Shown here piece by piece: positions 7,592-58,002 of a stretch of 64,000 bases of DNA. The stretch covers positions 10,731 to 74,730 of the forward strand of contig DASZGH010000084.1 in NCBI GenBank assembly GCA_035938935.1. The letters are read 5' to 3'. Numbering within the stretch: the stretch's first letter is position 1; each line of letters begins with the position of its first letter. Origin of the DNA: Solirubrobacteraceae bacterium. Its GTDB lineage: Bacteria > Actinomycetota > Thermoleophilia > Solirubrobacterales > Solirubrobacteraceae. Both the position numbers and the translations under genes were made by a program. The notes under the pieces are model-generated. The model was not told the DNA's origin, ran no database searches, and was given only the letters and a program-made list of their open reading frames with translations.

Positions 7592-7664
<73 letters not shown>

Positions 7665-7777: not shown

Positions 7778-8230
7778 CTATCTGTTGGCGAAGAACGACA
7801 GCAGGCAGGTGCCGAAGGTCAGTTCGCCGTCGTTATCGCGCTTGGTGCCTCCGACAGCGAAGACGATGTCCAGCCCCCCGGTCATCGTGTGACCCGCTTG
7901 GTGGATCGTCACTTTGACCGTCGAGACGCCGCCGCTGGTCTTTGGCGTGCTCTTGCCGACGATCCAGTTTGTGTAGCCGCCACGGCTCGTCGTGATCAGC
8001 TTCTGAGTGCCGGAGACGGTGATCGTGCCAGTGCCGCAACCTTCTTCGGGGCCCGGTGTCAAGCGGAGACCGGAGATCGACTTCTGGTTACGACCGACGG
8101 TGAAGCCACCCGTACTCCCGATCTTCCACTTGCCAGCCGCTGGACGCGGGGACGCCGAGCTCGCGAGCGCCACCACCGGAGCGATGACGGCGGGCGCGAG
8201 GACCATAGTGATAAGGCGTCCGGCACGCAT
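7778..8230 (-). CDS. Secreted hypothetical beta-rich protein
   Basis: N-terminal signal peptide, Gly/Thr-rich body, two Cys. Confidence 0.6.
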   Translation of the reverse strand: MRAGRLITMVLAPAVIAPVVALASSASPRPAAGKWKIGSTGGFTVGRNQKSISGLRLTPGPEEGCGTGTITVSGTQKLITTSRGGYTNWIVGKSTPKTSGGVSTVKVTIHQAGHTMTGGLDIVFAVGGTKRDNDGELTFGTCLLSFFANR

Positions 8231-8518
8231 TGGGCGAGTATATGTGGGCGGTCACGCAGTTCGCAAGGGCTGCTTGAGACACGCTGCTTACATCAGCCCG
8301 CCAGGCCAGACCCATTCCCGTCGAGCGAAATGCACTCTCCAGAACCCGCGCGTGGCGGTTCGCGTTAACTTCGGCTGGCTCCGCTGTGGCGAGCAGATGA
8401 TCGGCTTGTACTGCCGCTCCGGTGCCGAGACGTGATGAGTCGCGTGGCGTTCATTCCGGCGTAGGTCAGCCGTCTGCTGTACGGTTCGTCGGCTGGATTC
8501 GCTCTATAAGAACGAGAC

Positions 8519-9103
8519 ATGGCTACTCGAAAGACAAGCAAGAAGTCGCTGCTCAGCGGTAAGTCGCCGGTTCCTGCGGCTGTGCTAGCCGCCGTGATCG
8601 AGAGACCGGGCTACGGCTGGGACGTGGCTAATCGCGCCAAGCGTCGCTTGGGCTCGTCGTGGCGGATCGACCGGAAACACATCTACTCCTACCTAGAGCG
8701 CCTCGAAGACGACGGTCTGGTTCGGTCGCAGAGGGAGCCTGCCGGGCAGAGGGACGAAATGCGCGATGTCTACTACGCGACCGAGAAGGGCGAAGAAGCC
8801 CGCCGGGAGTGGCGCACGATGCCACTCAAACAGGGCGTCATCCCGACCGACTTGGACGTGCGGCTGCTGTTCTCGACCGAGGAGGACATCCCCGACCTCT
8901 TGGAGAGATTCGCTGAACGTGCGGAGCGGATTCTCGAAGAAATCGAGGACGCGGAAGCCGACGAGACGCCTCATGTTTCTTACCTGGCGCTGGTCATCAA
9001 CGCGCAGCGCGCGTCGGTGGAGCGGCGTTTGCGCGCTGAGCTGGAATGGCTGGAGGACACGCGGCGGGAACTTGAACTGGTGCGCGACCAGCTGAGTCGA
9101 TGA
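8519..9103 (+). CDS. PadR-family transcriptional regulator
   Basis: PGYGWDV...HIYSYLERLEDDGLV...YYATEKGEEARREW winged HTH plus helical C-terminus. Confidence 0.85.
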   Translation: MATRKTSKKSLLSGKSPVPAAVLAAVIERPGYGWDVANRAKRRLGSSWRIDRKHIYSYLERLEDDGLVRSQREPAGQRDEMRDVYYATEKGEEARREWRTMPLKQGVIPTDLDVRLLFSTEEDIPDLLERFAERAERILEEIEDAEADETPHVSYLALVINAQRASVERRLRAELEWLEDTRRELELVRDQLSR

Positions 9104-9837
9104 GCCTTCTGGCATTCCGAGGGGTGAGCAAGCGCTTCGTTGACGGTGGCGAGCAGATCACGGTCTTGGATCGCGTCTCTTTCGATATCGAGGCTGGCGA
9201 GACGGTGGGTTTGATCGCTTCGCGTCGAGGCGGCAAGACCACGCTGTTGAAGGTTGCTGCCGGCCTGATCGCGCCCGATGAGGGCAGTGTCTTATGGGAT
9301 GACGTGGAGCTGACGAGCATGAGCTGCGATGAGGTGGCGGTGACTCACCGCGAAGATGGCATCGCCTATGCCCGTGGCGACTGGCGCACTAGCCGTTCGA
9401 TGTCGGTCATGGATTTCATCACCGTCTCGCTGCATGGCGGTGTAGCGACCGGGCAAGAAGCCGAGGATCGCGCCGCCAAGACGCTTGAGCTGCTGGGCGC
9501 GGCACATCTGGCGCGCGGGCGCACGACCAAACTTGGCATGAGCGAGCGCTTGATCGTGGAGTTGGCGCGCGCGGTTGCGCACAAACCGCGCCTACTGCTG
9601 ATGGACGAGCCGGCGGTGCTGCGCAATCCCGACCACGCCAGGGAGTTCTACGAACTGCTGCGCTGCTTGCCGAAGAAGATCGGCTGTGCGCTCTTGATCG
9701 CCTCCGAAGAAATCGCGCCGCTGCGCGGCTGCAAACCGATGATGAACTTGTCTGACGGCAGGTTGACCTCGCCCACGAACAGGCGGAGGGTGATCGAGTT
9801 CCCCGGCGGTCGCTCGCCAGGGAATCGGGCGTCGTGA
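9100..9837 (+). CDS. ABC ATPase-like subunit with degenerate motifs
   Basis: Walker A ASRRGGKTT, signature LGMSE, Walker B LLLMDEP, H-loop ASEE; ATGA overlap with padR. Confidence 0.8.
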   Translation: MSLLAFRGVSKRFVDGGEQITVLDRVSFDIEAGETVGLIASRRGGKTTLLKVAAGLIAPDEGSVLWDDVELTSMSCDEVAVTHREDGIAYARGDWRTSRSMSVMDFITVSLHGGVATGQEAEDRAAKTLELLGAAHLARGRTTKLGMSERLIVELARAVAHKPRLLLMDEPAVLRNPDHAREFYELLRCLPKKIGCALLIASEEIAPLRGCKPMMNLSDGRLTSPTNRRRVIEFPGGRSPGNRAS

Positions 9838-10541
9838 GCACGCTTGAGCTACGGAGCGTTGTCAAGCGCTATGAGGGCGGTGGCGAGACGGTTCATGCGG
9901 TCGATGGGGTTTCGCTCACCGTCGAGTCGGGGGAGTTCGTGGCTCTGTACGGGCCAAGCGGCTCGGGCAAGACCACCCTCTTGATGTTGGCCGCGACGAT
10001 CAAGCTGCCTGACGCCGGCTCGGTCGTGTTCGGCAACCAGGAGCTGACCTGCCTGAGCGGCGACGAGCGCGCAAGATTCCGGCTTGAGAAGACGGGCATC
10101 GTCTTTCAGTCGTTTCACCTATCGCGTGGCGCGACCGCGCTTGAAAATGCGTGCATGAAGTTGTTTGCCACGGACGTGACGATCCGGCAAGCACGGGATA
10201 TGGCTCGGCCGTGGCTCGAGCGGTTGGGCCTTGGGGATCGTCTGGATCGCCGGCCGCCTGAAATGTCGATGGGGGAGCGTCAGCGAGTGGCTATTGCCCG
10301 AGCGCTGGCGAACAAACCGAGCATGTTGCTCGCCGATGAGCCGACCGGCAACCTCGATACCCGCCGCAGCCGGGAAGTCTTGGAGCTGCTGAGAGAGATT
10401 TGTGTCGAGGAGCGCATACCGGTCGTGCTGGTGACACATGACCCGCAGGCCACGGCCTATGTCAATCGCGTGCATACGCTGTGCGACGGCAAGCTCACGG
10501 ACGGCCTAGACCTCGATCTGCAAGTCCCGGTCTTGGGATGA
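9834..10541 (+). CDS. ABC transporter ATP-binding protein (LolD/MacB type)
   Basis: GPSGSGKTT, MSMGERQRVAIARAL, LLADEPTGNLD, VTHD. Confidence 0.92.
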   Translation: MSTLELRSVVKRYEGGGETVHAVDGVSLTVESGEFVALYGPSGSGKTTLLMLAATIKLPDAGSVVFGNQELTCLSGDERARFRLEKTGIVFQSFHLSRGATALENACMKLFATDVTIRQARDMARPWLERLGLGDRLDRRPPEMSMGERQRVAIARALANKPSMLLADEPTGNLDTRRSREVLELLREICVEERIPVVLVTHDPQATAYVNRVHTLCDGKLTDGLDLDLQVPVLG

Positions 10542-13111
10542 GACGCGCACCGCGCATCCCTACACGACCGCGCATCCTGGGGATGACGCCGGCCGGTTTG
10601 TACGCGCTCTACCGAGTGCATTGGCACACCAATCGCGGCTCCGAGCTGATGGCCGGCGCCGGCATCGCCATTGGCGTGTCGCTGGTGTTCGGCGTCCTGG
10701 TCGCCAACAGCAGCATCCTGGGATCGACTCGCGAAGCGATCAACGCCGTCAACGGTTCGGCGTCGCTTGCCCTTGTTGCGCGCTCGCCGGGGGGAGTCGA
10801 TCAGCAGCTCGCGCAGCGTGCCTCGGAACTGCCAGGCGTACAGACGGCCGTGCCGATCCTGCGCCAGAGCGCCGTCATCGAGGGGCCAAGAGGACACATG
10901 CTGGCGCAGCTCGTCGGCGTCAGTCCGCTCATCGTCAGCTTGCGTGGGGCGGCGGTCAAAGACCTTGGTGCTGGCGCGCGGCTGCTGGAAAACGGGGTCG
11001 GGTTGCCGTCGAGCGTGGCGGAAGCGGTCGGCGTCCAAGCCGAAGACAACGCGCGGCTGCTCGTCAACGGCAGCCCACATCTGCTTCGCGTGCAAGCAGT
11101 CCTCGACGCAGGCGCTATCGGTTCGCTGGCGTCGAGCCGGGTGGTCGTGATGCTCCTGGGCAATGCGCAGACGCTTGCCGGTATGCCGGGGCGCGTGACC
11201 CAAGTGCTCGTCAAAACGTATCCGGGTCGCGATAAGCAAGTCGAAGCTGAGTTGCAGCACTTGGCGGGAGGACGAGTCAATGTCGAGCCGGCCAACCACG
11301 AAATTGCGTTGGCCGAAACCGCCCTGACACCGACGAATCAGTCAACGAGCCTGTTTGCGGCGATCTCACTGATGGTTGGCTTTCTGCTGGCGTTCAACGC
11401 CATGCTGCTGACCATGCCCGACCGCCGCTGGCACATGGCGGAACTGCGCGAACAGACGTATACGTCGCGTCAAATCGTTGCCATCCTTGGTTCCCAGGCG
11501 CTTGTCCTGGGGATCGCGGCCTCCGTTGTCGGTGTGCTGGTCGGCTATGTCCTTGCCCGCACCGTCTTTGGGGCGGTGCCGAGCTACTTGGCGACGACGT
11601 TCCCGATCACCGGGCGTCAGTTAGTCAGCATCGTGCCGGTGATCGTCGCCTTCGCCTGCGGGGTGCTGGCGGCCTTCATGGCGGCGATGTCGCCGATCTT
11701 GGACTTGCGCAAGTACCGCGACGTTGACGCGATGATGAGCGAGCCGGGCGAGCCGGGCCAAAACATCACTGGCGAGATAGTGCGCGGGGTGGCTCTGCTG
11801 GGCGTGGCGATCGTGGTCGCCGCTACGCTCATGGTGCTGCTGGACTCGGGGTTGACCATCCTGGGCGGAGTGGCGCTCGCGCTCGCCACGCCTTGTTTCG
11901 TTCCCCTACTTTTTCGTGCAGCAACCGGCGTGCTCGGCTACGTCGCCCACAATTACCATGGGAAAATGTTGGCGGTGGCGGATATCGAATTGAAAGCGAC
12001 CGCCACTCGCTCGGTGGCGCTGGCGTGTATCACGGCGCTGGCGATCTACGGCTCCATCGCCGTCGGCGGGGCGCGCAGCGACCTGATCCACGGACTCGAC
12101 CAGGGCATATCGCAGCAGTGGCATTCGGCGGCGATTTGGATAACGCCGAACGAAAACATTCACGACACTGATAGCTTCGAGGCGCCTGGGGTGGCGTCGG
12201 TGGTTTCACGCACGGCCGGGATCGCGGCAGTCAGCGCCCGGCAGGGCTCCTTCTTGGACGTTGGCTCACACCGGCTTTGGGTACGCGCTGCACCCCCTGG
12301 CAACCCGGCGATGATCCTCTCTAGCCAACTTGAAGATGGCGCGCTCGCTCGCGCAGAGGCTCTGATGCGCCGACCCGGCTGGGCGACCGTATCGAGCGGC
12401 TTTGCTTCCGAACACGGGTTGCGGGTTGGTAGGTCGTTCACGTTGCCGACGCCATCGGGCGTCGTGCCGTTTCGTGTCGCGGCGATCACCACGAACATCG
12501 GATGGCCGCCTGGCACGATCACGCTCAACACCACGGACTACAGCCGCTATTGGCAGAGCGCCAACCCGACAACCCTAGCCGTCGATGTGAGGCCAGGCAC
12601 CATCCCCGCGGCGGGCGTGCGGGCCATCCGTCAGGCGCTCGGACCACGGACGGGGCTACGGGTGCAGACGGCCGACGAACGAATCGCCGAGGTGGAGGCG
12701 ACAGCGCGGCAGGGTCTGAGCATCCTCAACGACGTGTCCAACCTGCTGCTGCTGATCTCGGCCCTGGCGCTCGCCGCTGCGCTGACGGCGACGATCTATC
12801 AGAGACGCGGCCGGCTCGCCTCGCTCAAGGCTCAGGGCTATGTGCGCTGGCAGCTTTGGCGCGGCGTGCTGCTTGAGAGTGCCGTCGTGCTCGGGATCGG
12901 CTGTCTGGACGGCGCGATTCTCGGGTTGTACGGACACGCACTAGCAGACCACTATCTGCGCACAAATACAGGCTTTCCGGCACCGTTCAACATCGGCCTG
13001 GCGCAAATTGCGCTCACGCTGGTGATCGTCGCCGGAGCATCGCTGGTGGTCATCTCAATTCCGGGCTATTCGGCCGCTGGCATTGCCCCCGAGCTGAGCT
13101 TTCAGGAATGA
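10538..13111 (+). CDS. FtsX/MacB-like ABC permease (two repeats)
   Basis: Two sets of TM + large extracytoplasmic domain + 3 TM; ATGA overlap with the ATPase stop. Confidence 0.88.
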   Translation: MRRAPRIPTRPRILGMTPAGLYALYRVHWHTNRGSELMAGAGIAIGVSLVFGVLVANSSILGSTREAINAVNGSASLALVARSPGGVDQQLAQRASELPGVQTAVPILRQSAVIEGPRGHMLAQLVGVSPLIVSLRGAAVKDLGAGARLLENGVGLPSSVAEAVGVQAEDNARLLVNGSPHLLRVQAVLDAGAIGSLASSRVVVMLLGNAQTLAGMPGRVTQVLVKTYPGRDKQVEAELQHLAGGRVNVEPANHEIALAETALTPTNQSTSLFAAISLMVGFLLAFNAMLLTMPDRRWHMAELREQTYTSRQIVAILGSQALVLGIAASVVGVLVGYVLARTVFGAVPSYLATTFPITGRQLVSIVPVIVAFACGVLAAFMAAMSPILDLRKYRDVDAMMSEPGEPGQNITGEIVRGVALLGVAIVVAATLMVLLDSGLTILGGVALALATPCFVPLLFRAATGVLGYVAHNYHGKMLAVADIELKATATRSVALACITALAIYGSIAVGGARSDLIHGLDQGISQQWHSAAIWITPNENIHDTDSFEAPGVASVVSRTAGIAAVSARQGSFLDVGSHRLWVRAAPPGNPAMILSSQLEDGALARAEALMRRPGWATVSSGFASEHGLRVGRSFTLPTPSGVVPFRVAAITTNIGWPPGTITLNTTDYSRYWQSANPTTLAVDVRPGTIPAAGVRAIRQALGPRTGLRVQTADERIAEVEATARQGLSILNDVSNLLLLISALALAAALTATIYQRRGRLASLKAQGYVRWQLWRGVLLESAVVLGIGCLDGAILGLYGHALADHYLRTNTGFPAPFNIGLAQIALTLVIVAGASLVVISIPGYSAAGIAPELSFQE

Positions 13112-13159
13112 CCAGCCGAGCCGTGCGGCAGGCCGGGTACACACGCCACGCTGTTCGCT

Positions 13160-14248
13160 GTGAGATCTTCAACCGCGCGCAGTGTCGTCGCCTTCGTCTC
13201 GGCTGCCCGCCGTTACTGGCTTGGTGTCTTTCCGGTCGTCCGGCACGAGATTCGCCGGCTACACCGCTGTGCGCGTGGCATCCCCGACCCGGCGCTGCGC
13301 GCGCTGGCCTTCGACGCGCAGAAACGCAAGTGGGCAAGCCTTGAGGGCGCGGCGGCGTTCGCTGTCTTCACTCCCCGCTTAGGCCGCTTCTCCCTTGCCC
13401 GCCTGCTGGTTGACCTCCAAGGTGTCTTCGACTACGCCGACACGCTCATGGAGCAACCGAGTCGCTTTCCGGTCGCCAATGCTCGCCAGTTGCACAACGC
13501 CTTTGTTGTCGCCCTGCAACCCGAGCTGCCGCACGCTGACTACTACCGGCATCACGCGCAGCGTGACGACGGCGGCTACCTCGTCGAGCTGATCGACGGC
13601 TGCCGGGCGGCGATCTGCGCCCTGCCGTCCTACGCCGTCGTGGCAGATGTCGTGCTGCGTCATGCCTGGCGCATCGTCTTCTACCAGAGTCGGATCAACC
13701 TGGCGACCGCTGGCGATCATCCGGCGCTCGCCCGCTGGGCCAGCAAACAGCCGGCCGGCTCGCAGCTCAAGTGGTGGGAGCTGGGCGCGGCATGCGGCTC
13801 GTCGCTGGCGATCTTCGCGCACCTGGCGGCTGCCTCCGATCCAACCTTGACGCAGCGGGAGGTTGAGGCCATCGAGGCGCTGTACTGGCCGTGGGCCGAG
13901 GCGCTGCACATCATGCTCGACAGCCTCATCGACCGCGCCGAAGACTGCGCGACTGACCAGCTCAACCTACTCGACTACTACGCCTCGCAGGATGAAATGG
14001 TCGAACGGCTCGGCCTGTTGGCCTGCGAGATGGTCAGGCGGGCGGAGGCCGTGCCGCCGCATCATCGACTGATCCTGGCGGCAATGGTGGCGCTGTACCT
14101 TTCCGACGAGCAGGCGTGGACTCCCTCGGCTCGTCCGGCTACCGAACGCATCTTGGAAGCCACTGGCACGTTTGCCCGCCCGGCGCTGTTGCTACTGCGT
14201 CTGCGGCGCATGGCGCTCAGGTCCGAGCGAAATCTGATCGCGGCATAG
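13160..14248 (+). CDS. Tetraprenyl-beta-curcumene synthase (YtpB/DUF2600)-family terpene synthase
   Basis: FDYADTLMEQP acidic motif, DDGGYLVEL, WWELGAACGSSL, LHIMLDSLIDRAED, QLNLLDYY. Confidence 0.8.
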   Translation: MRSSTARSVVAFVSAARRYWLGVFPVVRHEIRRLHRCARGIPDPALRALAFDAQKRKWASLEGAAAFAVFTPRLGRFSLARLLVDLQGVFDYADTLMEQPSRFPVANARQLHNAFVVALQPELPHADYYRHHAQRDDGGYLVELIDGCRAAICALPSYAVVADVVLRHAWRIVFYQSRINLATAGDHPALARWASKQPAGSQLKWWELGAACGSSLAIFAHLAAASDPTLTQREVEAIEALYWPWAEALHIMLDSLIDRAEDCATDQLNLLDYYASQDEMVERLGLLACEMVRRAEAVPPHHRLILAAMVALYLSDEQAWTPSARPATERILEATGTFARPALLLLRLRRMALRSERNLIAA

Positions 14249-14307
14249 CCGCGTTGGGACTAGGGGCAGCGTAGCCTTTCCAAAGACTGAGACGCACTCC
14301 ATCATGC

Positions 14308-14583
14308 GTGGGCATGACGACAGATGGAGACAGCGAGAAACCGTCAGTCCGCCTCGGCCTTGAGGCGCTAGCGCAGTTCGAGAGCGCCGACGTCGAGCTC
14401 GACGGAACCGCCATCGGGCGACTGACGGGCGTGTCCTGCTCCACGGCGCGGGACTGCCTGGCTGACCTCTCGCGCTTTGGGTACGTCGTCGCCGGGGAGG
14501 ACGGGGGATATCGGCTGGTGGGGGACTCGCCGGGCGCACACGCTCGCCGTGATGGGGGCAGCTCGGCCGGCGCGTCGGCGTGA
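14308..14583 (+). CDS. Stand-alone IclR-type winged HTH protein
   Basis: SVRLGLEALAQF...IGRLTGVSCSTARDCLADLSRFGYV...GYRL. Confidence 0.65.
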   Translation: MGMTTDGDSEKPSVRLGLEALAQFESADVELDGTAIGRLTGVSCSTARDCLADLSRFGYVVAGEDGGYRLVGDSPGAHARRDGGSSAGASA

Positions 14584-15404
14584 GCCGAGCACCCTCTCAC
14601 AGCGGCAACGGTGGCAAGCGACAACCGCCTCATTCGACGCTGCTACGGCAGCCGCAGCCGTCGAAGTCATTGCAGGCGGCGATGGCGATTCCGCTCGTGT
14701 TCGCCCGACCCAGCCGAGCGTGCGGCGCGGCGGAAATGGCCGATCTCATCCGCCTCAGACCGGGCCGCGTCTTCGCGCGGCTCGGTCAGCCGCACCTATC
14801 CAGCGACGTGCTGGCGACGCGCCTTGCCGATCCCGGTGGCTCGTTGACTGCTGCGATGCAGAGGACGGAGCCGGTCCGAGAAGTCCTCGAGGAGCTATTC
14901 GAGGCGACCGGCTACACGGTCTGTATGGGCGCGCTCAATGACCGCAGCGTCGCCTACCTTCATCGACTCTACGGGCGTGACCGCGCTCAGCGTTTCATCA
15001 ATCAGGAAGTGAGTCTTGGCTCGCGCGCCCCGCTCTACTGCACGGCGCTCGGCAAGGCGCTGCTGGCGAGCTTGTCCGAGCCGTGGCGTCGCCGTCTACT
15101 GTCGCAAATCGACTTCATTCCGCAGGGGCCGCGCTCGTATGCCGCGGCGGATGAGCTGCTGGCCGAGCTGGCGACTTTGGATGACCAGGAGCCGGTCGTC
15201 AGCGATGAGGAGTACATCGCCGGCGCGCGCTCTATCGCGGTGTGCGTGCAGCGAACGCGTGACGAGCAGCCCATCGCCATTGACGTGACTGTGCCCGTCG
15301 AGGACTTCACGGTTCAAGAGCTGGTTGAGATGGTCGGGCCAAGTGTGAAGTACGCCGCGAACCGCATTGCGCAGATCGAGGCCAAAGGGCTACAGACCGA
15401 CTAG
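14580..15404 (+). CDS. IclR-family regulator with divergent HTH
   Basis: C-terminal effector domain GSRAPLYCTALGKALLA...DEEYIAGARSIAV; weak N-terminal SKSLQAAMAI...GAAEMAD. Confidence 0.8.
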   Translation: MSRAPSHSGNGGKRQPPHSTLLRQPQPSKSLQAAMAIPLVFARPSRACGAAEMADLIRLRPGRVFARLGQPHLSSDVLATRLADPGGSLTAAMQRTEPVREVLEELFEATGYTVCMGALNDRSVAYLHRLYGRDRAQRFINQEVSLGSRAPLYCTALGKALLASLSEPWRRRLLSQIDFIPQGPRSYAAADELLAELATLDDQEPVVSDEEYIAGARSIAVCVQRTRDEQPIAIDVTVPVEDFTVQELVEMVGPSVKYAANRIAQIEAKGLQTD

Positions 15405-15468
15405 CCGCGCCGGAACTAACGTCGGCATAGCCTTTTCACCAGCTTTCATCTGAGGCACGATCCAGCGC

Positions 15469-15966
15469 GTGACGAGCAAGGGGGACGCACCGAAAACGAT
15501 CGAGGCGCTTGACGCGGACGTGCTTCGCGCCCGCCGATCCGTAATCCTTGCCAAGCGGCGGGCGCGCAAACTCGCCAAACCGCTCTACATCAACACTAAG
15601 GCCGCGTGGCAAGGCGGGGTGGCCGGGCTAGCGTATGTCAGTGCCTCGCTCGGCGACCGCACAGCCCTGGTCGCCTGCGGTGGCCAGACCGAGGCGGAAC
15701 ACCATGCGCTGCTCATGGCGATGGTGGACGCCGAGGAATGCGAGCTGCCCGGCAATATCGAGTTCCGCTTGGACTCAGGCACCCTGGCCGATCTCGACGC
15801 CGGCCGGACACCCGAGCTGGTCGAGCTACGCAAACGGGTGATCGACATGCTTGCCCGCCATCCAGCGTGGAGATTGGAGTGGGTTGAGCGACGACGGAAC
15901 TGGATCGCCAGTGCTCCGGCACGACGGACGCTGAGTCAATGGGAGAACCACGCGGATGGGAGCTAA
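15469..15966 (+). CDS. RNase H-like fold protein, probably degenerate
   Basis: YINTKA...GLAYV, TEAEHHAL, EFRLDS, LEWVERRRN pattern parallels RNase HI. Confidence 0.55.
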   Translation: MTSKGDAPKTIEALDADVLRARRSVILAKRRARKLAKPLYINTKAAWQGGVAGLAYVSASLGDRTALVACGGQTEAEHHALLMAMVDAEECELPGNIEFRLDSGTLADLDAGRTPELVELRKRVIDMLARHPAWRLEWVERRRNWIASAPARRTLSQWENHADGS

Positions 15967-16030
15967 GGCTTCCTCGCTGCTCGACCTGGACGATGAGCAG
16001 AAACATCTTTCGCTAGTGTTCGATACCAGA

Positions 16031-37286: not shown

Positions 37287-37544
37287 TTATCGGTCCTGAG
37301 GTGCGACGCTCACGACCCGGCCGCGGCGGCCGGTCGTGAACTGGACGGTCCCGGCCGCGCGCGCGTACAGGGTGTCGTCCTTGCCGATCCCGACGCCGTC
37401 GCCCGGCTTGAAGCGGGTGCCGCGCTGGCGGACGATGATCTCGCCGCCGCTGACCGTCTGGCCGGCGAACGTCTTGACGCCGAGTCGCTGCGCGTTTGAG
37501 TCGCGCCCGTTGCGGCTCGATCCCAGCCCCTTCTTATGCGCCAT
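37287..37544 (-). CDS. rpmA: 50S ribosomal protein L27
   Basis: [24 protein letters not shown]. Confidence 0.98.
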
Positions 37545-37980
37545 CGGGTGTGTCCTCCTCCTTCGGCGCCGGCTGCTTGGCGGCGGCCTTCTTGGCGACA
37601 GCAGGCTTCTTGGCCGCGGCGGGCTTGGCAGCGACGGGCTTGGCCGCGACCTTCGGCGCAGCCTTGCTCACAGCGCCCATCGAGATGTTGGTCACCTCGA
37701 TCCTCGTCAGCTCCTGGCGGTGGCCCGTGCGGCGCTTGTAGCCGCGCTTGGGCTTGAACTTGAACACACGCAGCTTCTCACCGCGCTCGTGACCGATCAC
37801 CTTGGCGGTGACCTTAACCTTCTTCAGCCCGGCCGTGTCGAACACCGCGTCCTCGGAGCGGTAGAGGATCGGCTCGAGCGCGACGTCGGCGCCGGTCTCG
37901 GCGGGCAGGCGCTCGACGAGCAGCGTCTGGCCCCGCTCGACGCGGTACTGCTTGCCGCCGGTCTTGACGATCGCGTACAT
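37534..37980 (-). CDS. rplU: 50S ribosomal protein L21 with Ala/Lys-rich tail
   Basis: [14 protein letters not shown]...GHRQELT. Confidence 0.98.
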
Positions 37981-37983
37981 CTA

Positions 37984-38145
37984 GTGTCCCGAGTCAGAAA
38001 TTCGAAGAGGATTTGCCGAGCGATTGCGCGCGGCCTGACGTTCAACGGCGTCCGTGCGCGTGCCGGTAGCACGTGTGCGGACGCCGGGGGGCGTCAGACG
38101 CGTGCAGGCGCCGGGAAAGACCGTTGAATTTCTGACTCGGGACAC
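37984..38145. repeat. 162-bp rod-like palindromic element, copy 1
   Basis: Perfect 20-bp terminal IR GTGTCCCGAGTCAGAAATTC / GAATTTCTGACTCGGGACAC; interior pairs; homologous to 56959-57120. Confidence 0.85.
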
Positions 38146-38160
38146 CAGCTGTGATCCGTT

Positions 38161-54820: not shown

Positions 54821-55405
54821 CTAGTGTTCGGTGATGACTCGGTCGATGATTCCGTACTCCACGGCCTCTTCCGAGGACATGAAGTAGTCGCGCTCGGTGT
54901 CCTTGGAGACCTGGTCAAGCTTCTTGCCGGTGTGCTTGGCGATGATCTCATCCAGCCGTTTGCGCACGTCGATGATCTCCTTGGCGTGGATCTCGATGTC
55001 CGTCGCCTGCCCCTGGAAGCTCGATGAGACTTGGTGGATGAGGATCTTCGCGTTGGGCAGCGCCATCCGCTTGCCCTTGGCGCCGCCTGCCAAGAGCAGC
55101 GCTCCCATCGACATCGCGATGCCGACGCAGATCGTCTGCACGTCGGGCTTGATGAACTGCATCGTGTCGTAGATCGCAAGCCCGGCATAAACCGAGCCGC
55201 CGGGCGAGTTGACGTACAGCGAGACGTCCTTGGTGGGATCCTCGGACTCCAGGTGCAGAAGCTGGGCGACGATCAGGTTGGCGATCTGGTCGTCGACGGG
55301 CGTCCCTAGGAAGATGATGCGCTCGTTGAGCAAACGCGAGTAGATGTCAAAGGCGCGCTCGCCGCGTGAGGTCTGCTCGACGACCATCGGTACCAGGGGA
55401 CTCAT
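54821..55405 (-). CDS. clpP: Clp protease proteolytic subunit
   Basis: [22 protein letters not shown]. Confidence 0.97.
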
Positions 55406-55535: not shown

Positions 55536-56972
55536 CTAGCGGCCCGGAGTCCAAAGTCGCGCTGGCGGGGAATCGGACCCGCCCGCGAGCTCACCCGCGG
55601 CCGCGGCCTCCCGCTGCTCAGATTCCGGCGTCCACAGCTTCTCGCGCGCCTGGGCGAGCTCGACCGGGATCGGCTTTGCCTCGGCGGCGATCAGCTCGAC
55701 GGCCTGTCGCGCCGCCAAATCGTCGGTCAAATCCCCCAGTCGCCCATTGGCGCGCAACTGGTCGAGCACCCCTTGGGGTTGCAACCCCTCGCGCTCGGCC
55801 GTCGGCGCCACCGCATCGAGCAGCTCCTGCTCGCTCGGGACGATCTGCTCAGCCTCCACGATCGCCGCGATCACTGCTTCGCGACGCAGCGACTGCTCCG
55901 CCTCGGGCTGCAGCTCGGACAAAAGGTCGTCCTCGTCGCGCCCGGTGATCTTCAGGTACGCCTCGCGCGAGATGCCTCGATGCGAGAGCGAGTGCAGCAT
56001 CCGGCCCCACATCTCGCGCGCCTTGGCTCCCACCAGCGCCTCGGGCGTCTGCACCTGCGCCCCTGTGGCTGCGGCGTCCAGCGCCGCCTCGCGAAACTCG
56101 GCGTCCACCTGCTTTTCGACCGCCTCGCCGAGGCGCGCACGGATGTCCTCGCGCAGCTCCGCGACCGAGTCGAACCCCATGTCCACGGCGAAGTCCTCGT
56201 CCACCTCCGGCAGCAGCTTCTGCTTGATCTCCTTCGCCGTCACCGCGAACGTCGCATCGGCGCCGGCGAGCTCCTCGTTGGGATAATCGACGGGGAAGGT
56301 CGTCTCGATCGAGCGCGTCTCGCCCGCGGCGATCCCGGTCAGCCCCTCCTCGAAGCCGGGGATCAGGTTGCCTGAGCCGAGCTCGACCAGCTGGTCGCGG
56401 CCCTCGCCGCCCTCGAAGGGCTCGCCACCAGTCGAGCCGACGTAGTCGGCCACGACGAAATCGCCCGCCGCGGCCGGACGGTCGACCGTCTCCAGACGGG
56501 CCAGCCGCTCGCGCAGCCCGTCGATCTCGCGCGAGACCTCATCCTCGTCGACCGACGCATCGCGACGAGCGACCTCGAGGCCCTTGTACTGACCGAGCGT
56601 GGCGCGCGGAAGCACGCCGATCTCGATCGAGAACTGAAGCGCCGCCCCCTGCTTGGGCAGGTCAGCCAGGTCGAGCGTCGGGTCGCCGACCGTGGCGATG
56701 CCGGCGGCGTCGATCGCATCCGCGTACCAGTCGCCGAGCGTGTCGCGCACGGCCTCCTCGAGTACCGCCTCGCGGCCGACGCGCTGGATCACCAGCGGCG
56801 CCGGCACCTTGCCGCGGCGAAAGCCGGGGAACTTCATTTCGCGACCGAGCTGGCGCGCCTTGCGCTCAAGGCGCGACTCGATCTCGGCGGGCGCCACCTC
56901 GACCTGTACGCGCACCCGCGACTCGGGCAACTCTGTCACGGTCGTCTTCAGAGCGGTGGTGTCGGGAGTCAA
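55536..56972 (-). CDS. tig: Trigger factor; 5' end interrupted by palindromic element
   Basis: [13 protein letters not shown] domain (FEGG, IPGFEE, FPVDY); first in-frame start is a TTG inside the element stem. Confidence 0.93.
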
Positions 56973-57121
56973 GAGTTCGGTGAGGGTTTGCCGGGTGTAC
57001 GGGGGTGTCTGACGTTCCCCGTCGGACGTGCGCGTACCGGATAGTACGTGTGCGGACGAAGGGGGACGTCAGACGCGCCCAGACGCCGGCAAACGCCGCC
57101 GAACTCTTGACTCCCGACACC
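56958..57121. repeat. 162-164-bp rod-like palindromic element, copy 2
   Basis: Perfect 23-bp terminal IR GGTGTCGGGAGTCAAGAGTTCGG / CCGAACTCTTGACTCCCGACACC; near-continuous internal pairing. Confidence 0.88.
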
Positions 57122-57134
57122 CGGCACGGCTGCC

Positions 57135-57140
57135 ACGATA
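57135..57140 (-). promoter_or_regulatory. Putative -10 box of a leaderless tig transcript
   Basis: TATCGT, 7 nt, then GTG CCG on the minus strand just outside the element. Confidence 0.5.
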
Positions 57141-57254
57141 CCGTGCGCCGCGATGAGCAAGCGCGCATGCTGCCCGAGCCACGATCGCCCGAATCGGCGA
57201 TCGGCTCACCCTCTCGAGACGTGGCTGTGGACCGGCCCGGTCGGCCACCTGCTC

Positions 57255-57288
57255 GGAGGAGCGCTCGACTTCGCCGAAGCGCTCCTCC
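57255..57288 (-). terminator. GC-rich hairpin, possible terminator of the USP gene
   Basis: 11-bp stem GGAGGAGCGCT/AGCGCTCCTCC; no U-tract. Confidence 0.4.
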
Positions 57289-57324
57289 TCTATTACAGGG
57301 CTAGCCGAAGGGCTCGCTAGCTCG

Positions 57325-58002
57325 CTAAATCGTCGCCAGCGCGCCGCCGAAGGACAGCGTCCGACCGTGGGGCACCACCAGCACCGGGCAGGTGGCGATC
57401 TCGATCAGATTCTCGCTGGCCGCGCTGATCGACACGCGCCCGTCCTCTGCCTCCGGCCGCGAGCCGACCACCAGCGCGTCGACGCTGTGATGGTCAGCGG
57501 CCACGACCTCGGCGCCGAGCGCGCGGGCAAGCGCCTCGGCGGTCGCCTGCGCGCCTCCGTCGCCGACGACGCCGACGTTATGCACGCCGCCGCTCGCCTT
57601 GGCAAAGCCGGCCGGCGCGATCGCTACCGCGACCGGGCCGCCCTCGAGCAGGCGTTGCGCGGAGTTGCCGACGGCAACGTGGCCCTGGGCGGTATGGGAG
57701 TCAGAGCAGAACACGATCGCCTCGGCGCCGATGCGCTCGGCCAGGGCGCGCAGGCCGTCGGGCGTAGAGCGGTCGGTGATCACGTGGCGTGCGACCTCGC
57801 TGTCGCCGAGCAGCTCGGCCCCGCGCTGCAGCAGCTCCTCAGCCTCGTGCTGGGCGAGGATCTCGCGGCTGGTCTCCTCTTCGGGGGCGTGGCGGACATA
57901 GGCGAGTGAGACCTCGGCGCCTGCCTGAGCGAAGACGCGGCCGAGCGCGACCGCGTCGTCCTCGTTGTAGGTGCCGTCGTAAGAGATGACGATGTCGGAC
58001 AT
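57325..58002 (-). CDS. Universal stress protein (second domain shortened)
   Basis: IVISYDG, AIVFCS, GNSAQRLL, ALVVGS...CPVLVVP. Confidence 0.82.
   Translation of the reverse strand: MSDIVISYDGTYNEDDAVALGRVFAQAGAEVSLAYVRHAPEEETSREILAQHEAEELLQRGAELLGDSEVARHVITDRSTPDGLRALAERIGAEAIVFCSDSHTAQGHVAVGNSAQRLLEGGPVAVAIAPAGFAKASGGVHNVGVVGDGGAQATAEALARALGAEVVAADHHSVDALVVGSRPEAEDGRVSISAASENLIEIATCPVLVVPHGRTLSFGGALATI

Follow-up and report, generated by a model that had tools for sequence, protein, structure and literature searches.

The stretch of DNA analyzed here (hereafter, the window) comprises 64,000 nucleotides of a Solirubrobacteraceae genome assembly (GCA_035938935.1, contig DASZGH010000084.1, positions 10,731 to 74,730). 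Its minus strand carries the gene tig, whose product is the trigger factor of a Solirubrobacteraceae bacterium. Near the beginning of this gene lies a palindromic unit of 164 bp, which we designate copy A. A unit of the same family, copy B, is located elsewhere in the window, upstream of the gene of ribosomal protein L21. The features of both loci are collected in Table 1 together with the copies found in other genomes and metagenomes.

Copy A occupies positions 56958-57121, and its two ends are inverted arms of 23 bp without mismatch, GGTGTCGGGAGTCAAGAGTTCGG and CCGAACTCTTGACTCCCGACACC; these had 0 matches in 100 shuffles of the window. The mRNA-sense strand of the unit has a folding energy of -115.9 kcal/mol (z = -11.5). 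On the minus strand, the order is TATCGT (57140-57135), seven nucleotides, GTG (57127-57125), CCG, the 164-bp unit (57121-56958), and then ACC GCT CTG AAG ACG ACC GTG. The original prediction, made from the letters alone, had described both the repeat-bounded 164 bp and the junction TATCGT-N7-GTG CCG ACC GCT CTG that its deletion would leave, and both can be read directly in the sequence.

The length of the insertion is 2 modulo 3, and the host frame is therefore not kept. The tig frame is closed within the element by TGA 57071-57069, and its next canonical start is TTG 56972-56970. From the native GTG, exactly 52 codons are open (about 52 had been expected) before TGA 56971-56969, which overlaps this TTG. 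The four letters TTGA at 56972-56969 are a stop/start overlap of the -4 type. The third frame has no stop throughout copy A. The arrangement of frames is statistically unremarkable in itself: a TGA in the frame of the upstream open reading frame (uORF) and a TTG in the tig frame are one and the same 1-in-3 condition.

Table 1. Features at the two loci of the window, and location and junctions of the family copies (positions without a locus name are those of the window; ORF, open reading frame)
Feature	Position	Strand	Basis and remarks
-10-like box TATCGT, leaderless-type promoter	57135-57140	-	Read directly; 7 nt 5' of native tig start; block CTCATCGCGGCGCACGGTATCGTGGCAGCCGTGCC invariant in four relatives
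Native tig start GTG, now start of the 52-codon uORF	57125-57127	-	In all relatives, a GTG or ATG start aligns here
uORF made by the insertion, VPGVGSQEF...GKPSPNS, 52 codons	56969-57127	-	Translation, ORF list
Copy A: 162-bp element proper (GTG...CAC, 56959-57120) with one pairing-extending base per side	56958-57121	.	Absent from L001-L004
Promoter-proximal arm, 23 bp	57099-57121	.	Inverted-repeat search
tig-proximal arm, 23 bp, with the TTGA overlap on the mRNA strand	56958-56980	.	Inverted-repeat search, translation
Candidate restart codon TTG (tig frame), overlaps the uORF stop	56970-56972	-	First canonical start past the in-frame TGA 57071-57069
tig (trigger factor) ORF from TTG, 478 aa, intact	55536-56972	-	Top matches with Pfam Trigger_N, FKBP_C, Trigger_C, 94% identical
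Copy B, 162 bp, fills the rne-rplU spacer	37984-38145	.	Flanks TA 37982-37983, CA 38146-38147; family profile and alignment; downstream junction TAGATG rplU
Relay mini-ORF of copy B, VSRVRNST...SDSGH*MYAIV, 54 codons	37981-38145	-	GTG 38145-38143, TAG 37983-37981, rplU ATG 37980-37978 directly after
rplU (ribosomal protein L21)	37534-37980	-	Pfam Ribosomal_L21p on relatives
Copy in L015, between rpsL (S12) and rpsG (S7)	within L015 1049-2138		rpsL TAATG ... CACTGAtg rpsG; apparent TG/TG duplication
Copy in L006, between smc and next gene			smc TAGTG ... TAG-CC-ATG
Copy in L018/L019, between smc and next gene			
Copy in L007			TAGTG ... TAG-G-TTG
Copy in L008			Downstream junction CACTAGTG (CAC-TAG-TG)
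Copy in L013, between NMT1-family gene and response regulator			cTAGTG ... CACTAGtg
Copy in L016			cTAGTG ... CACTAGtg
Copy in L017, between unknown gene and MlaD-family gene			
Copy in L005, between kinase and FhaA-like gene			

Four relatives (L001-L004) have empty alleles that are exactly 164 bp shorter and read GGTATCGTGGCAGCC GTG CCA GCY GCN CTG AAG. The amino-acid identity of their trigger factors to that of the window is 94% for L001 and L002 and 86-88% for L003 and L004; L001 and L002 also share the gene neighborhood of the window, LysR-usp-tig-clpP-clpX. The 35 bp 5' of the start are invariant in all four, and TATCGT-N7-GTG is kept. Among 120 relatives, the majority of the proteins begin with MP[T/V/A], and where genes were called too far 5', the translation has ...HGIVAA[M/V]P..., derived from the block CAC GGT ATC GTG GCA GCC with the TATCGT box. 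The relatives vary in N-terminal length and in residues 2-4. Thus the insertion after codon 2 and the empty junction that had been predicted were both found in nature. Since the empty alleles lack the 164 bp, the insertion is lineage-specific; the box and its spacing are conserved.

A -10 box with a short spacing to the start codon is a signature of leaderless genes in actinobacterial promoters. Such genes have a TANNNT box 6-8 nt 5' of a start without a Shine-Dalgarno sequence; TATCGT-N7-GTG, called a leaderless -10 box in the original prediction, has this form in the window, is invariant in the four relatives and is recognizable in many more. Judging by this motif, tig is probably leaderless.

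A contig of 3038 bp from run X1 spans the whole region of the filled allele with 0 differences, and two overlapping contigs of run X2 agree with it. The junctions of the filled allele are present only in these two runs. The filled allele is real and rare, and it is probably young. In the same two runs, a much commoner relative has the flanks of window 56865-57214 with 160 letters between them vs 348, and is probably without the element; the depth of its contigs is ~64 and 47 vs 10 and 8 for the strain of the window (X1 and X2, respectively).

Copy A is a member of a family, as follows from a profile search (E = 3e-47) and from the alignment of copies. The conserved core is shared by 13 loci, i.e., by 12 besides copy A, copy B included; one of them, L019, is a near-duplicate contig of L018. 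A scan of a genome collection with the core pattern gave L005, a metagenome-assembled genome of Solirubrobacteraceae, and no further locus (the source genome of the window is not in the collection). A scan of metagenomes gave L006-L009, and a search with the peptide encoded by the element added six called mini-ORFs, which fall on seven loci, L013-L019. Contigs of X1 and X2 also contain incomplete copies, with both types of arm represented. No copy was found in viral contigs and plasmids, and Rfam contains no family for the element (the region was searched at E <= 1; in the whole window at the gathering score, the sole match was one tRNA). Contigs of X1 and X2 that match window 57046-57120 hold a further copy, followed by TAG-GAGG-CACGGTCG-ATG and located directly 5' of an ordinary start led by a Shine-Dalgarno sequence.

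Ends, flanks and folding were analyzed in the 11 copies that have both ends, oriented in the sense of the neighboring genes. The element proper, from GTG to CAC, has 162 nt in ten of these and 161 nt in L005 (copy C). Five copies are flanked by TA/TA and one (L015) by TG/TG; in three the two dinucleotides differ by one base, and in copy A (GG/CA) and L005 (TA/CC) they are unrelated. At palindromic CTAG sites, a duplication of 2 bp, of 4 bp or none at all would predict an identical empty site. For copy A, comparison with the empty alleles revealed no direct repeat with 2-bp, 4-bp or shifted boundaries. Relatives of the window also provided three empty sites at rplU, in which only ~20 nt separate the rne stop from the ATG of L21.

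The inner core of the element is conserved, and the outer arms have at least two unrelated sequences, GTGTCCCGAGTC... and GTGGTTCATCCTGG..., which always pair. In all 11 copies 12-14 of the 14 end bases are paired. RNAalifold gives 75 consensus pairs, 23 of which are retained through changes on both sides. The only ORF has 54 codons and encodes no transposase; no Pfam match is on record for its six called examples. Terminal inverted repeats, small size, filled and empty sites, and several dispersed copies, which are features of miniature inverted-repeat transposable elements, or MITEs, were found. The 164 bp are thus almost certainly a copy of a nearly palindromic, non-autonomous, MITE-like 162-bp mobile element of Solirubrobacteraceae. 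No autonomous partner with matching ends turned up in scans of genomes and metagenomes that were aimed at the core pattern, not at a partner. A TA-duplicating transposase of the IS630/Tc1 type would be the natural suspect for the mobility.

The hairpin is strand-specific. One given strand folds 20-40 kcal/mol better in all 11 copies (7-12 G.U pairs vs 1-4), and in ten of them this strand is antisense to the neighboring genes. Of the six copies that the DNA pattern revealed, five have the weaker hairpin on the mRNA, an orientation bias short of significance; the rest were found via the peptide of that very strand and are thus biased. The strand specificity possibly reflects a role of the element as single-stranded DNA or antisense RNA, or a better survival of insertions with a weaker hairpin on the mRNA. 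Several G.U pairs of the hairpin are invariant across the family.

All copies except copy A are located in a very short spacer between co-directional genes (Table 1). The stop codon of the upstream gene has its last base in common with the GTG of the element, or with an ATG formed from the flank. After exactly 54 codons the duplicated dinucleotide rebuilds a stop codon, which shares a base with the downstream start or stands 0-4 nt before it. The ORF has stop/start overlaps at both ends in L013, L015, L016, L006 and L007, and at the downstream end in L008, L017, L018 and B. The copy of L015 is the clearest case of the element within an essential, tightly coupled junction. The original prediction that the element inserts at gene starts does not hold as such: the family occupies TA or TG dinucleotides at the stop/start junctions of operons, and the tig copy is the odd one out.

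The 54-codon frame, which we call the relay frame, is open in all ten copies of 162 nt, a count affected by the way some of them were found (see below), and the other two sense frames are closed by stops in 14 of 20 cases. Five of the 162-nt copies came from the DNA pattern, and among these the four non-relay frames of both strands are open in 1 of 20 cases. A neutral simulation from the family consensus gave a joint P of ~0.013, or ~0.07 for the five copies found without ORF calls. This is suggestive of selection on the relay frame. In copy C (L005, 1276-1300), a deletion of one nucleotide destroys the relay frame, and a chain of ATGA overlaps is found instead: the GTG frame ends at the TGA of GGATGAAC, the overlapping ATG starts an ORF of five codons, ATG AAC CAC CCG AGA TGA, and the TGA of this ORF overlaps the ATG of the FhaA-like gene.

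Reinitiation needs an overlap of the -4 or -1 type; TAGTG, TAATG, TGATG and ATGA/GTGA are the configurations in which post-termination ribosomes reinitiate, and the coupling drops steeply by 13-14 nt and is almost gone by 20-38 nt (PMC6728339; PMC10666635). As coupling is lost over such short distances, a 164-nt hairpin within a junction should break it unless translation bridges the hairpin. An unbridged spacer of 164 nt would be costly between rpsL and rpsG or before rplU, which is why we read the 54-codon frame as a relay. In a typical copy, the GTG start, the 54 codons and the duplicated dinucleotide jointly rebuild two stop/start overlaps, and ribosomes would be handed from gene to gene by two successive events of termination and reinitiation. 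Since copies with an open frame and overlaps at both ends are located between essential co-transcribed genes, ribosomes probably traverse the hairpins. Taken together, the sequence evidence tips the scales slightly towards a relay function of the typical copies.

Two other explanations of these junctions were set aside. Motifs resembling a Shine-Dalgarno sequence (GGGA or AGGA) that lie in the distal arm, 5-12 nt 5' of the following start, are inconsistent among subtypes and absent in copy A. The availability of CTAG as the cause of the location at gene boundaries was not used as an argument, as the crude gene caller covered 62% of the window and the resulting classification was unreliable.

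Copy A is atypical in that it lies inside the coding region of a probably leaderless gene, has GG and CA as flanks and is entered in element frame 2. It ends with G...C instead of TA...TA; hence, no TAG is formed. Element frame 2 ends at a TGA of the distal arm (TGACT, a trait of the arm type of copy A), and the preceding T yields TTGA. The equivalent position holds CTGA in copy B and L009 and CGAC in L006. The TTG restart codon is therefore a property of the arm variant of copy A. As the TTGA motif is mirrored in the other arm, it probably predates the insertion. The apical loop of copy A has one additional base (GGATAGTAC vs GG-TAGTAC in other copies), which creates TACTAT (57046-57041) on the gene strand and GATAGT on the opposite one.

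For tig, we suggest the following route. Copy A would be an off-target insertion, probably a recent one, in codon 3 of a leaderless gene whose mRNA would still begin at the native GUG. A ribosome would load on the 5' end, most easily before the distal arm is transcribed, and would translate 52 codons in element frame 2, melting the hairpin on the way. It would terminate at the UGA in the distal arm and reinitiate at the overlapping UUG. The resulting trigger factor would start with MTPDTTALK instead of M/V-P-x-ALK, and this start with its three extra residues should be tolerated, since N-terminal length and residues 2-4 vary in the relatives. Neither a consensus scan of 56700-57500 nor direct reading revealed a Shine-Dalgarno sequence or a -10-like motif 5' of the TTG, and the same scan, for promoters and terminators, found neither, with no promoter-like site on either strand. 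With no such signal before it and buried in a 23-bp stem, the TTG is unlikely to initiate independently, which favors a ribosome that arrives from upstream. The family lends the restart some indirect support, as its other copies carry an open frame with stop/start overlaps between essential genes. The insertion, the empty allele, the conserved box with its spacing, the frames, the family and the geometry of its junctions can be seen in the sequences, and from these data we infer the leaderless transcription start, the translation of the uORF and the reinitiation at UUG. Termination at the UGA followed by reinitiation at the UUG, one of the two routes offered in the original prediction, appears to be the most likely route to trigger factor, albeit with somewhat less than an even chance of being correct. 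The explanation as a whole, i.e., insertion, family, relay and restart in tig, comes close to an even chance.

A number of observations weigh against this explanation. A very stable stem that begins at +7 of a leaderless mRNA should hinder further loading of ribosomes once folded. UUG is a weak restart codon, and the coincidence of frames has a 1-in-3 prior. Copy A is without the duplication of the family and not in the relay frame, so the design of the family is not directly applicable to it. Only two runs contain the filled allele, whose arms show no mismatch; decay may not yet have had time to show, so an intact ORF is no proof of function. The branch of the window has 9 unique amino-acid changes vs 4 in L001, a difference that is not significant. 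Half of the copies that back the open relay frame came from ORF calls, and the count is thereby biased. Finally, in the single metatranscriptome that contains the organism (X3), one identical 151-nt contig lies inside tig and none covers either element, which is too thin to be used.

The main alternative is a young null or strongly hypomorphic allele: tig would be cut off from its start, little or no trigger factor would be made, and the ORF would look intact only through the recency of the event and the dispensability of tig. This is favored by the same rarity of the filled allele, by the empty state of the nearest relatives at 94% identity, by the match of the arms over 23/23 positions, by the stem at +7 and the weakness of UUG, by the lack of a Shine-Dalgarno sequence before the TTG, and by the slight excess of amino-acid changes. 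The downstream genes clpP and clpX are separate and need not depend on translation of tig, and tig is dispensable in model bacteria such as Escherichia coli. However, other copies of the family are located directly before the essential genes rplU and rpsG without killing them, so the hairpins are no absolute block. The dN/dS ratio (nonsynonymous to synonymous substitution rates) of tig vs L001 is 0.17, within the 0.16-0.27 of pairs of empty alleles, there is no frameshift or stop in 474 codons, and relative-rate and dN/dS tests gave no significant signal of decay. In addition, the sole frame open to the native start closes with a stop that forms a -4 overlap with a start in the tig frame. We regard a null allele as less likely than the restart, yet as a serious contender.

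Processing of the mRNA is clearly less probable. Here an enzyme of the RNase III type would cut the hairpin, with translation from UUG, from CUG 56951 or from GUG 56939; removal at the RNA level belongs to the same class. In the mRNA the stem is indeed long and nearly perfect (-109 to -116 kcal/mol), typical copies end 0-5 nt 5' of start codons, so that a basal cut would yield near-leaderless mRNAs, and RNase III is reported to bind or cut Correia elements (PMC2649163). Yet a cut without rejoining would lose the native start, a conserved open 54-codon frame with rebuilt overlaps would be unneeded, and the stronger hairpin is antisense in 10/11 copies, which leaves the weaker version on the mRNA. 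Excision or bypass at the RNA level, as with an intervening sequence, had been offered in the original prediction; there is no match to an intron or ribozyme family in Rfam, and the open relay frame argues for translation over excision. A self-splicing intron or intervening sequence is likewise without support, as Rfam gave no match around the element at E <= 1.

Still less probable is a promoter carried by the element. Transcription starting from TACTAT (57046-57041) would give an mRNA that holds only the distal half of the palindrome and leaves the TTG unpaired. TACTAT does fit TANNNT and arises from the 1-nt insertion peculiar to copy A, and Correia elements can create promoters (PMC2649163). 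However, the consensus scan found nothing like a promoter here on either strand, a leader of ~60 nt would still have no initiation signal, and other copies precede essential genes without this motif. Direct reading likewise showed no TANNNT suitably spaced from any of the flanking starts. An assembly artefact is hardly credible: palindromes do break assemblies, contigs of X2 stop within the element, and at >= 97% identity no contig runs across copy B, but the X1 contig and the two concurring X2 contigs cover copy A, and the 162-bp unit is found at 12 other loci in unrelated samples.

The preferred explanation, insertion of a mobile element followed by restart, can be extended to the family. 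The element would be "translation-transparent": selection would keep its 54 codons, its GTG start and a relay frame that is open, mostly on both strands, and it would colonize -1 overlaps, even that of rpsL and rpsG, without breaking coupling. The tig copy would represent a second mode of tolerance, a uORF with a TTGA restart within a leaderless gene, and the hairpin of the opposite strand would perhaps be the single-stranded DNA form used in mobility. This extension is speculative, and we consider it less likely than not.

Several known repeats resemble the element in part. Mycobacterial interspersed repetitive units (MIRUs; Supply et al. 1997) are repeats of Mycobacterium of 40-100 bp, often in tandem as variable-number tandem repeats, with weak terminal repeats and tetranucleotide direct repeats (PMC3184786). 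They are likewise actinobacterial repeats of polycistronic operons, with a small ORF that overlaps the flanking stop and start, with known filled and empty sites and with G+C-rich internal inverted repeats (PMC3184786). The relay trait of MIRUs, i.e., a location between co-transcribed genes and overlapping ORF ends, is seen in the typical copies and not in copy A. In contrast to MIRUs, the 162-bp family consists of single units, each of them a long hairpin whose perfect arms measure 14-23 bp, with an apparent 2-bp duplication of TA or TG; the sequences are not similar, and the hosts belong to another class, Thermoleophilia.

Rickettsia palindromic elements are palindromes of ~150 bp inside protein genes, which they do not destroy, but they are in frame and translated within the host protein (PMC10969869). 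Copy A adds a net 164 bp that close the host frame by stops, so that termination and restart would be required. Correia elements of Neisseria have 100-160 bp, terminal inverted repeats, a conserved core and TA ends, and they are co-transcribed with their neighbors and alter the expression of these (PMC2649163). They differ in that they create promoters at their ends, bind integration host factor and are substrates of RNase III, whereas 56700-57500 contains no promoter-like site; moreover, a relay ORF or targeting of stop/start junctions is not described for them (PMC2649163). The 162-bp family is not MIRU, Rickettsia palindromic element or Correia element, because the defining features of these (size and tandem structure, in-frame translation, and promoter creation, respectively) fail.

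MITEs of the IS630/Tc1-mariner type have a two-base TA duplication, terminal inverted repeats and no transposase coding. The element is like them in its apparent TA duplication, in its many CTAG sites, in its terminal inverted repeats and in the lack of a transposase. It is unlike them in that TG duplications occur too, in that copy A has no duplication at all, and in that the outer arms differ wholly between subtypes and the core is conserved, whereas MITEs usually show the opposite. At their ends, typical copies match known pairs of termination and reinitiation, i.e., ATGA/GTGA (-4) and TAGTG/TAATG/TGATG (-1), but there the pairs are native, whereas in the family a mobile element creates or duplicates the overlaps, and TTGA is outside the common forms (PMC6728339; PMC10666635). 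The element is thus MITE-like in anatomy and mobility and MIRU-like in its relation to neighboring genes. Its notable features are the design of 54 codons from GTG to stop, which duplicates a -1 overlap, the location between rpsL and rpsG, the strand-specific hairpin, and the natural restart test provided by a probably leaderless tig.

If the relay works, a selfish element can live where a compact genome leaves the least room between genes, at overlapping stop/start junctions in ribosomal and cell-division operons, because it copies the junction and spans it with a frame that can be translated. In an actinobacterial class that has been little studied, its copies would then be natural test cases for termination and reinitiation across a hairpin of high stability, and for leaderless initiation beside strong structure. 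The family also matters for annotation: it explains spurious "hypothetical proteins" of 54 aa and over-extended or mis-started neighbors in Solirubrobacteraceae assemblies, and its palindromes explain breaks in these assemblies.

Some other features of the window were recorded. Between the Usp-like gene and the tig promoter, at 57255-57288, there is a G+C-rich hairpin (GGAGGAGCGCT, a 12-nt loop, AGCGCTCCTCC). It is invariant in the four relatives though the surrounding spacer varies, and an identical RNA contig of X3 spans 57213-57363. It is probably a usp terminator or a regulatory hairpin. A tRNA gene (7592-7664) is followed by a block at ~8000-16000 with lower G+C content (63-66% vs ~70%), in which the plus-strand genes have lower G+C at third codon positions and more CTAG and TA. 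This block resembles an island that has integrated beside the tRNA gene. In the window as a whole, CTAG is ~4-fold under-represented (47 sites observed, 184 expected) and TA ~2-fold (790 observed, 1557 expected). Several CTAG sites coincide with stop codons (tig at 55536, clpP at 54821, and 40170).

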